Assembly (NCBI GenBank): GCA_019113245.1
Contig: DXHU01000013.1
Location: 6,965 to 70,964 of the forward strand
Reading direction: 5' to 3'
From: Candidatus Ornithospirochaeta avicola
GTDB taxonomy: Bacteria; Spirochaetota; Spirochaetia; Sphaerochaetales; Sphaerochaetaceae
DNA: 64,000 bases
Positions within the stretch are counted from its first letter, which is position 1, and each line of letters opens with the position of its first letter. The notes under the pieces were generated by a model, which ran no database searches, was not told the DNA's origin, and saw nothing but the letters and a program-made list of their open reading frames with translations. Of this stretch, positions 38,091-43,649 are shown piece by piece. The position numbers and the translations under genes are program-made.

Positions 38091-38125
38091 GGGGACCATA
38101 GCACGGCAATGTCGTTTAGTTAAGG
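38091..38125 (+). repeat. Cassette inverted repeat, left (GGGGACCATAGCACGGCAATGTCGTTTAGTTAAGG)
   Basis: Outer 7/7 and inner 17/19 positions match the reverse complement of the right repeat. The central ATAGCAC is flipped relative to the arms. Confidence 0.6.
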
Positions 38126-38218
38126 AATCTTGGTGGTTCCGAGACCACGGCATTCCGAGAGCCCTGTTAAGTTAATAACCAGCTGGAAACGGGGTTGAAC
38201 CTCCCCGCCATACAGAAA

Positions 38219-38258
38219 GACCACAGCCTCCTCAAAAACGGGGACTGTGGCCTTTTTT
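38219..38258 (+). terminator. Hairpin + T-run module inside left cassette end
   Basis: CCACAG (38221-26) / CTGTGG (38245-50) followed by TTTTTT (38253-58). Homologous to the module at 43554-43590 in inverted orientation. Confidence 0.45.
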
Positions 38259-38360
38259 ATGTGAGGTGGATGACTTATATCTGCGGACGAGTAATGGAAA
38301 TTGATTTTCCTGGTGGATGCTGGTACATGACGGAATGAGCCATCCCTGCTGGAATGGGTG

Positions 38361-39689
38361 TCATGCGACCCTACAGTTGAAACAGATGACGCTTTTGGGC
38401 CGGAGCTTCCGTTTGTCGCTCCTTCCCGGCCTGACGGGTTCGACATACCGGCGCATCAGCTCTCGGATATCGATATTGATGCTGTTATTCAGGAAAGAGA
38501 AGCAGATGTGTTTCGCCTGGGAGAAGTTGACTTTGTAGACATGGACGTTCTCTTCCGGTTGTTCGATGATTACCGAGTTCGCTATGCGGGCGCAGAAGTT
38601 GTACATGAGGAGCCGTGCGAAGATCTCCTGCATGATGGACTCCTCCTTCCGCGAGTGGAGGTTCGTCAGCCCGATGGCGCACTTCAGCCATCTGAAGGAC
38701 GTCTCGATGCCCCAGCGCAGGTGGTACAATTCCTTTAGCTTTACGATGGGGAAATGGTTTCGGCCCAATGATGTCACCAGCGTCTCGTATTCACCGGTCT
38801 CCAGCTGGAATCTGACCACACGCAGTCTCATCAAATACGGTGACGGATGGAACCATGATACATCCTTCTTCCTTTTTCCGAACTTGCTCGGCCCTGGAAG
38901 GATTTTGACTTTTCCCTCAGCAAAGAGATGCTTCGTCTCCTTGGTCTGCTCGGTGACGATGGTGAAGGAGATGTCGGTATCGAATTCTGCCATCGGCATC
39001 CGCGCCAACTCCGAGATGAAACCATTCGGAACCCTGAAGAGAAAATCAACGTTCTGGTCACGGATCGTCTCCATGAGGTCAAGGGACGCATACCCTCTGT
39101 CAGCGATGACGATTGTGCGGCAGGATGATTTTTGCAACCGCTTCACCATCATGCGGGCGGCCTCTACCTCGTGCTCCTTGGGCGCGGATTGGACTACGCA
39201 GTCGAGAAAGGTGTTGTTGAGGATGTCATACAGGGCGTTCAGATGCAGCTGGTTGAACCCAGTATCCGACCTGTTGTTCGGTGGGAAGTAGGTATCGGAA
39301 TCAGGATTGAGTGCGATGTTCACGTCATAGCCGTCCACTGCAATGAGGCGGTAGCCCTGATAGAGATTCAGATCGTTCACTCCCGTATCGGCATTGAATC
39401 TTCTGAAAGCCTCCTCGAATGCTTCATGCCTGATCTTTCCGCGCTGCTGGACAAATGCGGACTTGGTGATGAATGGATTGTCCGGCTGGAGATTGTAGAG
39501 ATCGCAGAGTTCCTTGTTGAGAGAGTTACCTTCCATATAGAGCACCGCCTTCATTGTCTCTGCGAACGGCAGTTTCCTTCTCCTGCTGAAGTCGCGTCCC
39601 GGAGACATGACGAACCGTTCGGCCTCCTTTTCGAGGTCGTTCAGATTGGAGATGAGGATGTTCCGGTAGCTTTCCTCGAATCCTGCCAT
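38361..39689 (-). CDS. IS4-family DDE transposase
   Basis: 'IADRGYAS' (second D region) and the Y-(2)-R-(3)-E-(6)-K signature 'YHLRWGIETSFRWLK'. GC-rich with stop-free antisense frames. Start set at 'MAGFEESY' (39689). IS ends not identified. Confidence 0.88.
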   Translation of the reverse strand: MAGFEESYRNILISNLNDLEKEAERFVMSPGRDFSRRRKLPFAETMKAVLYMEGNSLNKELCDLYNLQPDNPFITKSAFVQQRGKIRHEAFEEAFRRFNADTGVNDLNLYQGYRLIAVDGYDVNIALNPDSDTYFPPNNRSDTGFNQLHLNALYDILNNTFLDCVVQSAPKEHEVEAARMMVKRLQKSSCRTIVIADRGYASLDLMETIRDQNVDFLFRVPNGFISELARMPMAEFDTDISFTIVTEQTKETKHLFAEGKVKILPGPSKFGKRKKDVSWFHPSPYLMRLRVVRFQLETGEYETLVTSLGRNHFPIVKLKELYHLRWGIETSFRWLKCAIGLTNLHSRKEESIMQEIFARLLMYNFCARIANSVIIEQPEENVHVYKVNFSQAKHICFSFLNNSINIDIRELMRRYVEPVRPGRSDKRKLRPKSVICFNCRVA

Positions 39690-39940
39690 GTCTTTCCTAT
39701 TCAACAATTCAATATAATGAGGTGAAAATCTCGCCGTTGCACATATTTTTATAAGTATAGATTTCTGGAATGACAAGGAAAAAGTCTCAAAATAATGCGA
39801 TTTTCGGTCACATATCCTCATATAGGATTATGATATTGAATACAATCTGATATAAGGCTTATGTACTCAATATATTAATCCATATTACTTGTTTTCTGCG
39901 TCAATCTGCTATACTATGTACAAAGGATATCGACAGGACG

Positions 39941-40627
39941 ATGAATACACCGAAGAATGGCAAATACGATAGATTGGCAACGAAGTTCTGGCACAACGTC
40001 GATTTCGTACTGAGGGAGCGTGGAATGACATGGAAGGAGCTTGCGTGTAAGCTCGACATAGACCCTCGTACCCTGTCCTCCAAGAAGTCCAGCAACAGCA
40101 ACGTCTCGATCGGCAGTGCGAAGGAGATGGCTGAAGCTCTCGGTACCAGCGTTGACCGCCTGATCTATGGGAACCCGGAGAATATTAACAAATTGAATGC
40201 TTTGAACGCCTCGCTCCCTGTCATGACTCAATATTCTATGATATACTTCTTCCTTTGTAGGGAGGTTGGTCATGCCGTCGAAACAGGACAAGGAAGTCAT
40301 ACAGGAACAGGTCGAGGATCTTTACAACAAGATTGCCGATCTGCTTGCCGAGGTCAACATCAAATGGGCAGACCTCGCACGGCTCATAGGACTGAGTCCG
40401 AAGACGCTGTCCAGCATGCGTTCACAGAAGGTAAATCCGAGCTTCACGACGATAAGAAGGATTGCCGAAGCTCTCGACATCTCCATGGACGAGCTGTTGT
40501 ACGACCACTCGAAGGCTCCTCATCTATACGAGTTCTACTGGGCCGTTCCGCGTGCAATCAGGGATATAGAGCTCCAGGACATGACATGCAACCAATGTTT
40601 GACCATCGCCTATGTCACCGGCCATAA
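39941..40627 (+). CDS. XRE-type HTH protein (only the first ~90 aa look domain-like)
   Basis: 'MTWKELACKLDIDPRTLSSKKSS..NVSIGSAKEMAEALGTSVDRLIYG'. The ORF then runs stop-free out of frame across the next gene, so the real end is uncertain. Confidence 0.4.
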   Translation: MNTPKNGKYDRLATKFWHNVDFVLRERGMTWKELACKLDIDPRTLSSKKSSNSNVSIGSAKEMAEALGTSVDRLIYGNPENINKLNALNASLPVMTQYSMIYFFLCREVGHAVETGQGSHTGTGRGSLQQDCRSACRGQHQMGRPRTAHRTESEDAVQHAFTEGKSELHDDKKDCRSSRHLHGRAVVRPLEGSSSIRVLLGRSACNQGYRAPGHDMQPMFDHRLCHRP

Positions 40628-43266: not shown

Positions 43267-43267
43267 A

Positions 43268-43444
43268 ATGATGAACAGAGAGAACATCAGAAGACTGAAT
43301 ATCATTCTATACGGCGTTGCAATAATAATAAGTGTCTTCGCCTTATACACCTTTGTATTCATTTATAATCCGGGGAATGTCTGGAAACTGGTGCTTATAA
43401 TCATTGGAACAGATGGCTTTTCTCTGCAATCTCTGGATTCCTAA
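43268..43444 (+). CDS. Small hydrophobic protein (58 aa), hypothetical
   Basis: Manual translation 'MMNRENIRRLNIILYGVAIIISVFALYTFVFIYNPGNVWKLVLIIIGTDGFSLQSLDS'. Starts 2 nt after the nuclease stop. Below the ORF-track cutoff. Confidence 0.3.
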   Translation: MMNRENIRRLNIILYGVAIIISVFALYTFVFIYNPGNVWKLVLIIIGTDGFSLQSLDS

Positions 43445-43553
43445 AGCACCTGAAACACCACTGATTATCAACGGTGATATCAGGAACTGGCGATACGATC
43501 ATGCAAAAGGAATCCTTGTGAGACATAAGTGATTTCATACTCAACTGATACAG

Positions 43554-43590
43554 AAAAAAGGCCCACCCCTGTTTTTGATAGAGGTGGGTC
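43554..43590 (-). terminator. Hairpin + T-run module inside right cassette end (also placed to terminate the amylase-family gene)
   Basis: CCCACC (43562-67) / GGTGGG (43583-88). On the minus strand it is followed by TTTTTT (plus A-run 43554-59). Confidence 0.5.
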
Positions 43591-43616
43591 TGTTGTTTTG
43601 AAAGCGGGCTTCAATG

Positions 43617-43649
43617 CCTTAACTTAATGACATTGATAGCACGGTCCCC
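43617..43649 (-). repeat. Cassette inverted repeat, right (reverse complement GGGGACCGTGCTATCAATGTCATTAAGTTAAGG)
   Basis: See the left repeat. The outer end lies 6 nt from the stop codon of 43656..47033. Confidence 0.6.

Follow-up and report, generated by a model that had tools for sequence, protein, structure and literature searches.

Gene content and boundaries of the element

We analysed a 64,000-nucleotide stretch of the Candidatus Ornithospirochaeta avicola genome (assembly GCA_019113245.1, contig DXHU01000013.1, positions 6,965 to 70,964 of the forward strand; hereafter the window), in which a block of genes lies between an SDF-family transporter gene and an amylase-family gene. The block carries an IS4-family transposase gene, two small regulator genes, and a gene pair for a putative restriction-modification system, and a preliminary description had read it as a non-autonomous, Tn3-like cassette at 38091–43649. 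The mobile unit was placed at 38107–43635 of the window (5529 bp), and with a probability of roughly 0.9 it is an IS4-family transposon capable of autonomous movement, of the kind called a transporter insertion sequence (IS) or unit transposon. The features that define its borders are the following.

38055–38083, minus strand: site resembling a promoter, for the SDF-family transporter gene (TTGACC-17-TATAAT, 11/12 consensus matches); host DNA, intact
38091–38097: host DNA, terminator-stem arm GGGGACC of the amylase-family gene, uninterrupted in the empty-site contigs
38098–38106: target-site duplication, copy 1, ATAGCACGG, comprising the terminator loop and 2 stem nucleotides; exact 9-bp direct repeat with 43636–43644
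38107–38125, plus strand: terminal inverted repeat at the transposase-proximal end, CAATGTCGTTTAGTTAAGG, matching the IS4-subgroup end signature
38163–38179: second GTTAAGTTAA copy near the transposase-proximal end
43611–43635, minus strand: terminal inverted repeat at the cargo-distal end, CAATGTCATTAAGTTAAGG, with conservation extending to GCATTGA (25 nt invariant)
43636–43644: target-site duplication, copy 2, ATAGCACGG, abutting the right element end
43643–43649: host DNA, the other terminator-stem arm, GGTCCCC, 6 nt from the amylase-family stop codon at 43656–43658

Both end sequences of the preliminary description were found where it had placed them, GGGGACC-ATAGCACGG-CAATGTCGTTTAGTTAAGG at 38091–38125 and its partner at 43617–43649, and its view of the block as a mobile element that was inserted and has inverted repeats at its borders was borne out. 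The 33–35-bp repeat was right in its letters but not as a unit, because it is composed of a 19-bp terminal inverted repeat (38107–38125 and 43617–43635), a 9-bp target duplication, and half of a host stem. On the plus strand, the left end reads GGGGACC / ATAGCACGG / CAATGTCG... and the right end reads ...GACATTG / ATAGCACGG / TCCCC. What had looked like a flipped centre of the repeat is a perfect 9-bp direct repeat abutting the 19-bp inverted repeat and is itself the target-site duplication. The duplication had been reported as absent, as the ends were drawn 16 and 14 nt too far out. An independent repeat search recovered the inner arms (38107–38128 and 43614–43635, 22 nt, 86% complementary; pair I3), and the pattern CAATGTCRTTWAGTTAAGG had two matches in the 64 kb, both at the element ends, where 0.05 were expected by chance. 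The element end bases are CAATGTC...AGTTAAGG, and at the cargo-distal end 25 nt were without change across four elements carrying different cargo.

The guanine-plus-cytosine (GC) content of the element was 47.2%, compared with 41.1% for the rest of the window, and was the highest among all 5.5-kb windows. The claim that the cargo is richer in GC than its surroundings was correct for the transposase gene (52.7%) and the regulator genes (49.7%) but not for the methylase gene, which at 44.1% does not exceed the adjacent amylase-family gene (45.7%); the excess stems from the transposase and the regulators. Rfam at gathering thresholds gave no structured RNA match anywhere in the element. A guide-RNA or riboswitch-type RNA was considered for the 254-bp stretch that separates the element end from the transposase stop codon and was rejected, as a subterminal repeat and a terminator account for this stretch.

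Elsewhere in the window, Rfam matched group II intron D1-D4-3 at 26770–26922 (minus strand, 66 bits), between a gene for a BspA-type leucine-rich-repeat protein (25292–26707) and a rubrerythrin gene (27066–27647). No reverse-transcriptase open reading frame (ORF) was found nearby, and the match is probably an intron fragment.

Insertion into a host terminator

When the element and one copy of the direct repeat were removed, the minus strand read TGA-ATAAGC-GGGGACC-GTGCTAT-GGTCCCC-CTTTTTGTTG, with a computed fold of −20.4 kcal/mol (z = −3.6). This reconstructed site is a textbook intrinsic terminator right after the amylase-family stop codon. As the preliminary description had stated, the right end as then drawn lies 6 nt from that stop codon, the left end abuts the transporter promoter, and neither neighbouring gene is disrupted.

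Relatives with an empty site between the transporter and amylase-family genes, a comparison that had been proposed earlier, were found. The protein P0121, which shares 98% identity with the amylase-family protein, occurs on six contigs, four of which were retrieved (L088–L091). On these contigs, the distance from the amylase-family stop codon to the transporter start is 69 bp, the gene order matches that of the window on both sides, the transporter promoter sequence is present, and the intergenic hairpin stands intact without a cassette as GGGGACC-TTGCCTG-GGTCCCC-TTTTTGTTGACC. Nucleotide identity to the window was ~93% across 9 and 12 kb of flank, with the alignment breaking at 38097 and 43639. 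Because the hairpin is intact in these contigs, the outer seven positions that had matched 7/7 as an element end are the host terminator stem (GGGGACC/GGTCCCC). The unit as a whole entered this terminator at its hairpin loop, downstream of the amylase-family gene, and duplicated 9 bp of the target.

The transposase and its family

38361–39689, minus strand: IS4-family DDE transposase, 442 amino acids (Pfam DDE_Tnp_1, 4e-29; NCBIfam transpos_IS4_1)

The mechanically called ORF continues to 39821, and homologues start at an internal methionine. The protein scored 176.9 bits against the NCBIfam model NF033592 (transpos_IS4_1, cutoff 115), and every other IS family model remained below its cutoff. 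The DDE triad (D119, D197, and E329) was invariant among 24 homologues, and its spacings of 78 and 132 residues lie within the D(60–110)D(100–150)E given for the IS4 family (PMC2266710). The Y-2-R-3-E-6-K motif was likewise invariant in these homologues (Y322, R325, E329, and K336; sequence YHLRWGIETSFRWLK). At the DNA level, the ends CAATG.........TTA fit the IS4-subgroup signature -AATR--------WTW with 5'-NA ends (PMC2266710, Table 1), and the element end is identical at 15/19 positions to the E. coli IS4 end TAATGCCGATCAGTTAAGG, read from MG1655. The element agreed with the IS4 family in every feature tested, namely DDE spacing, YREK motif, curated profile, and duplication length. Given that the transposase is only 23% identical to IS4 InsG and 39% identical to the IS1675 transposase, a narrower assignment to the IS4 subgroup would rest on the ends and the duplication length. 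Homologues of the transposase numbered 2911, and a scan of one genome per species gave 453 relatives.

The preliminary description had taken the IS4-family gene for a secondary insertion and the cassette for a non-autonomous one. Neither view was sustained: no second repeat pair surrounds the transposase gene (a third repeat near it was not found with up to 3 mismatches, nor by eye at 39820–39940), and the same repeat flanks plain 1.6-kb relatives that contain a transposase gene only. The IS4-family transposase is the element's own enzyme. Its intact 442 residues align end to end with those of the homologues, which is not what defines a MITE (miniature transposable element with inverted repeats) or a mobile insertion cassette, and the duplication and the empty site bracket all 5529 bp, as in a transporter IS or unit transposon.

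Relatives and choice of target

The same terminal repeat bounds 58 distinct elements in spirochaetes and Firmicutes, counted over all loci fetched in this analysis, and most of these are plain ISs of 1.61–1.67 kb. Among 46 distinct insertion sites, the duplication was 10 bp at 28 sites (two of them with one mismatch), 9 bp at three sites, and 11 bp at one site. At 20 of the 32 duplication-bearing sites, the duplication was centred in the loop of a hairpin having 5 or more stacked pairs, compared with 332 of 1500 random positions (p = 1e-6). Around the insertion sites, A was over-represented from −10 to −8 and T from +8 to +10. The reconstructed empty sites were overwhelmingly hairpins with the order A-tract, GC-stem, loop, stem, and T-tract, the duplication being centred on the loop. 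Members of this clade insert preferentially at the centre of terminator hairpins, with staggered cuts mostly 10 bp apart. The IS4 copy of MG1655 is located in AAA-N20-TTT with a 12-bp duplication, and thus a symmetric A/T-flanked target also fits the IS4 copy examined. A general AAA-N20-TTT target consensus for IS4 and an IS4 insertion in the pheST attenuator were looked for in the literature and not found.

The closest relatives (63–95% transposase identity) were found in spirochaete metagenome-assembled genomes (MAGs) and in gut or rumen metagenomes, and the closest relatives of the transposase and of the second regulator, HTH-B, were from MAGs of Spirochaetaceae, Spirochaetales, and Sphaerochaetaceae. 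Seven distant Firmicutes relatives (L019, L023, L075, L087, L030, L020, and L073) are 2.5–6.2 kb in length and have other passengers between the repeats. These include a MazF/PemK and SocA-Panacea toxin-antitoxin pair, a PBECR4 nuclease, DUF3800, an NYN-domain protein, an adhesin-like protein, and S-layer-homology (SLH) proteins. A reverse transcriptase of a group II intron lies within L075.

Terminators carried inside the ends

38216–38258, plus strand: hairpin followed by TTTTTT, a predicted intrinsic terminator against transcription entering from outside (dG −17.4)
43554–43599, minus strand: hairpin followed by TTTTTT, facing inward from the right end (dG −15.5)

The two hairpin and T-run modules of the preliminary description proved real. 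The hairpin at 38216–38258 follows the transposase gene on the other strand, and that at 43554–43599 ends the cargo operon on the plus strand. Among the 58 elements, terminators oriented from outside to inside and located 50–150 nt from the ends were detected at the distal end in 52 and at the transposase-proximal end in 55, compared with 41 of 580 shuffled sequences. The distal hairpin is retained in the related element at locus L013, though its stem sequence differs. The built-in terminators would stand in for the host terminator that the insertion splits, the hairpin at 43554–43599 terminating the amylase-family transcript, and they may also shield the element from read-in transcription. 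The combination of terminator-loop targeting and outside-in terminators across the clade suggests a way of inserting at low cost, and densely, in compact genomes.

Control region and regulators

39690–39940: divergent control region, 32% GC, conserved in 8 relatives
39825–39844 and 39862–39881: 20-nt inverted repeat, GGATTATGATATTGAATACA / TGTACTCAATATATTAATCC, 17 nt apart; candidate operator, conserved in relatives
39941–40186, plus strand: HTH-A, a small XRE-type (helix-turn-helix) regulator, 82 amino acids in relatives
40272–40724, plus strand: HTH-B, a 150-amino-acid XRE/HTH_26 regulator; last backbone gene, with its stop codon abutting the first cargo gene

The closest relatives share a backbone with the order end, terminator, transposase, divergent control region of ~250 bp, HTH-A, and HTH-B. 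The 82-amino-acid HTH-A gene adjoins the transposase gene in the spirochaete-type relatives whose contigs reach that stretch. In the window, the HTH-A stop codon is lost, and the ORF runs to 40627 (228 codons), crossing the HTH-B start out of frame; the cause is either decay at an early stage or an error in sequencing or assembly. HTH-B belongs to a small family of 94 proteins. Its true relatives were not found in IMG/VR, while JGI metagenomes gave four short loci; carriage by phages was rejected, given the absence of true HTH-B relatives from IMG/VR.

We also considered HTH-A and HTH-B as controller proteins of restriction-modification systems, and the matches found were weak and of a generic XRE kind (PADLOC Control_protein, E = 0.006; C.Esp1396I, 0.7; C.BclI, 0.3). 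The two regulators would control the divergent promoters and hence the expression of both the transposase and the cargo.

Cargo and its probable exchange

40725–42137, plus strand: cargo gene 1, EcoRI-like N6-adenine DNA methyltransferase (Pfam EcoRI_methylase, 3.5e-104; PADLOC MTase_II, 1.8e-78)
42100–43266, plus strand: cargo gene 2, DUF262 (GmrSD_N) and HNH nuclease, putative restriction enzyme (Pfam; PADLOC REase_II)
43268–43444, plus strand: small hydrophobic ORF of 58 amino acids within the cargo segment, no family match
43458–43532, plus strand: 75-bp relic of a T5orf172-type gene (3' end), part of the 178-bp distal stretch with 98% identity to L011

The methylase and nuclease genes are adjacent and overlap by 38 nt, as the genes of type II systems are expected to be adjacent, and the PADLOC REase_II model PDLC03418 matches the nuclease over its full length (9.7e-79). 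The two genes probably encode a working type II restriction-modification pair; the DUF262 and HNH architecture of the nuclease is also known in modification-dependent enzymes. No sequence relative of either protein was found in the PDB.

The cargo differs among the spirochaete relatives. The EcoRI-like methylase and DUF262-HNH nuclease are present in the window, L013, and L116; an MmeI-like type IIG enzyme with a helicase and T5orf172 is present in L005 and L011; and a 304-amino-acid protein, GmrSD, an Eco57I-like protein, and T5orf172/ResIII are present in L096–L105, in an element of 10.0 kb. Cargo-bearing units with their own duplications, in hairpins elsewhere, were L005, L011, L098, L115, and L116. 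The window element and L011 are 90% identical in the backbone and 98% identical in the distal 178 bp, while the cargo between these parts is unrelated. The two sequences part exactly at the HTH-B stop codon (TAG at 40722–40724, with the methylase ATG at 40725). Because the distal 178 bp of L011 include the end of its T5orf172 gene, the relic of that gene in the window indicates that an MmeI-type cargo was replaced here, probably by recombination inside the element. The spirochaete relatives keep one backbone and the distal 178 bp and vary the defence cargo. Cargo would be exchanged by recombination between elements across these conserved flanks.

Several related loci showed further features. 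The 10-kb relative at L096 (1–7773 and 7864–17912) is directly beside genes of type IV secretion and coupling (VirB8, CagX, TrbI, and TraG-like) and is thus probably on a conjugative element. L013 (4835–6100 and 10001–11294), which has the same restriction-modification cargo as the window, contains a secondary IS with a DDE_Tnp_1_6/DUF772 transposase; its own transposase gene is broken into three ORFs and no target duplication is present, as in a decaying copy. At L119–L123 (~10001–17300), an HTH-B-like gene is followed by a set of MmeI, 311-amino-acid, 639-amino-acid, and T5orf172 proteins, adjacent to a GmrSD gene. This set occurs without the transposase or HTH-A, and L123 is the same locus without the set; it looks like either a fixed remnant or the separate gain or loss of a cassette in a defence island.

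A repeat tract in the methylase gene

The methylase gene contains a (GACA)11 tract at 41702–41745, followed by two out-of-phase copies of the conserved C-terminal module (motif NG.MGVPITFLD.YNP.QF...Y.RI.I). The first module, C1, runs to 41929, and the second, C2, spans 41925–42137, in different frames. After the tract, one frame reads C1 and then stops, the current frame passes over C1 out of frame without a stop codon and enters C2, and the third stops immediately. The out-of-frame passage across C1 was free of stop codons in three diverged elements. The tract length modulo 3 would thus give a protein with C1, one with a linker and C2, or a truncated one, as read from the three frames.

The same design was observed at L013 (7400–8200), with (GACA)20 and a truncated frame, and at L116 (11500–12100), with a decayed tract; L117 is the L116 locus in another sample and ends in (GACA)7 or more. 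Among the best 150 representatives of the methylase family, 10 contained at least two modules, and in two of these repeat-derived peptides were located between the modules. A multi-module relative, P0347, has a SAQLS repeat. The alternative C-terminal modules are possibly specificity-determining, and a methylase with a repeat tract and out-of-phase C-termini is a candidate for a switch with several states, in epigenetics or in defence.

A wider proposal, to which we assign well under even odds, is that the spirochaete branch is a dedicated defence shuttle, which lands safely in terminator loops, makes good the terminator that it splits, drives its cargo from its own promoter, and carries the methylase as a three-state switch. 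If this were true, a promoter under the control of the shuttle's regulators and able to drive any cargo would explain how different restriction and anti-phage sets come to occupy one slot.

Proposed mechanism and alternative explanations

In the mechanism that we propose, the transposase would bind the terminal repeats and mobilise the element through hairpin-mediated cut-and-paste transposition, as IS4-family enzymes do. The element would land in a terminator loop, where its built-in terminators would replace the split host terminator, and the two regulators would govern the divergent promoters of the transposase and the cargo. The cargo would be swapped through recombination between elements at the conserved flanks.

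Several points weigh against an autonomous IS4-family transposon of this kind. Identity between the empty-site contigs and the window is only ~93%, and the hairpin loops differ (TTGCCTG versus GTGCTAT); the pre-insertion sequence of this strain was therefore reconstructed, not observed. Fourteen of the 46 sites lack an exact duplication, and about a third of the duplication-bearing sites are not in a clear hairpin, so that the preference for hairpin loops is strong but not absolute. Some copies are decaying, as indicated by the lost HTH-A stop codon in the window and the frameshifted transposase gene of L013, and the resemblance of the regulators to known restriction-modification controllers is weak. 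The window contains only one copy of the element, and elsewhere the exact transposase is recorded on a single Logan contig, at the same locus; exact-protein look-ups of the window transposase, transporter, and amylase-family protein returned that locus on one Logan contig or nothing. All of these results come from sequence analysis.

The least improbable alternative, with only a very slight chance, is that the block is a one-off composite, in which a plain IS came to lie beside a restriction-modification island and a chance or surrogate repeat served as the distal end, making the unit an accident and not a lineage. Most relatives are indeed plain 1.6-kb ISs, and the relic of another gene at 43458–43532 also speaks for this reading. 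An accident does not account for a distal repeat and terminator module that are conserved across cargos (25 nt invariant, and 178 bp 98% identical to L011), for regulators located between the transposase and the cargo wherever a contig covers that stretch, or for cargo-bearing units of 5.5–10 kb at several sites with their own duplications.

Still less probable is the Tn3-like cassette of the preliminary description, non-autonomous, with 33–35-bp GGGG...TAAG ends, mobilised in trans, and invaded later by an unrelated IS4-family gene. Its ends do have a superficial GGGG...TAAGG appearance, and no Tn3-type transposase or resolvase was found inside when the cassette's main ORFs were scanned with Pfam. 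However, the GGGG belongs to the GGGGACC/GGTCCCC arms of the host terminator, which the empty site also has; the duplication measures 9 bp and not 5 bp; the inner repeat is an IS4-subgroup end signature and bounds plain ISs encoding such a transposase (PMC2266710); and the transposase gene has no repeat pair of its own. The empty site and the family comparison already refute this explanation, and the case illustrates how a host terminator stem and a target duplication can make a transposon end mimic a longer Tn3-like repeat.

Integration by a site-specific recombinase, with ATAGCACGG as the crossover core shared by attL and attR, has an equally slight chance. A direct repeat with partly palindromic arms does resemble a core site, but no integrase or serine recombinase gene is present in or next to the element, and the flanking direct repeat has another sequence at every site and in most cases a length of 10 bp, as expected of transposition with staggered cuts. 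The weakest alternative, in which the repeat and hairpin modules are a repetitive extragenic palindromic (REP)-like intergenic repeat around a native gene block, draws on hairpin and T-run structures that look like ordinary terminators. The preliminary description had named such an outcome as one that would refute its reading, and the outcome did not occur: the repeat was found only twice in the 64 kb, in other genomes it bounded an element with a transposase in every case, the block is missing as a whole from this locus in relatives, and the element is the 5.5-kb window of highest GC content.

Comparison with known systems

The autonomous IS4-family transposon described here most resembles the IS4 subgroup, represented by IS4 of E. 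coli and by IS1675, the nearest named relative found. It shares with this subgroup a transposase encoded by a single ORF with a DDE triad and YREK motif, NAATR...WTW ends, a duplication of about one helical turn, and the symmetric A/T-flanked target seen for the MG1655 IS4 copy. It differs in the hosts of its closest relatives, which are spirochaetes, and in its length of 5.5 kb instead of 1.4–1.65 kb, which is due to the two regulator genes and the cargo. Less ordinary are its conserved pair of regulators, its cargo slot, and the replacement of one terminator by another.

The modular IS231 elements of the Bacillus cereus group reach 5.4 kb, have extra DNA and passengers in the interval from the left repeat to the transposase gene, and show target specificity (PMC2266710, section 6). 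The passenger layout is the same as in the window element, whereas IS231 represents another subgroup in another phylum, with CAT ends, duplications of 10–12 bp, and passenger genes for resistance, virulence, or metabolism (PMC2266710), and no conserved regulator pair has been described for it. In 2008, such modularity and passengers had not been seen in IS4 subgroups other than IS231 (PMC2266710). In transporter ISs, as defined by ISfinder and TnCentral, passengers are likewise located inside the terminal repeats and are moved with a single transposase gene; TnCentral listed them for the IS1595 and IS66 families only (10.1101/2021.05.26.445724), and the window element would be an IS4-family case. 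With the Tn3 family, defined by ~38-bp ends, TnpA, a resolvase and res site, and a 5-bp duplication, the element has in common only the superficial GGGG...TAAG appearance of its misdrawn ends; the GGGG is host DNA, the duplication is of 9 bp, and neither a Tn3-type TnpA nor a resolvase is present.

Other mobile elements also land safely in repeated intergenic sites that are structured. The IS3-family elements IS1397 and ISKpn1 insert in the loops of REP sequences, IS110-family elements insert in REP sequences, and bacterial class C group II introns insert after terminators. ISPpu9 is reported in REP sequences (PMC12288879). Enzymes and chemistry differ from those of the present element, which is distinguished by a DDE enzyme of IS4 type, by a 9–11-bp duplication centred on the loop, and by the replacement terminators that it brings.

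A literature search for IS4-family elements with anti-phage or defence cargo found none described. The nearest functional counterparts are Tn7-like transposons, which also combine a conserved transposition backbone with variable, defence-rich cargo and a harmless specific target (PMC8649781). They differ in using TnsABCD/E or CRISPR-guided machinery and attTn7-like targets, and they are much larger. An IS4-family lineage in gut and rumen spirochaetes would move whole restriction or anti-phage modules as single units of 5.5–10 kb, adding a simple route for the spread of defence systems to those provided by Tn7-like elements, integrons, and conjugative elements.

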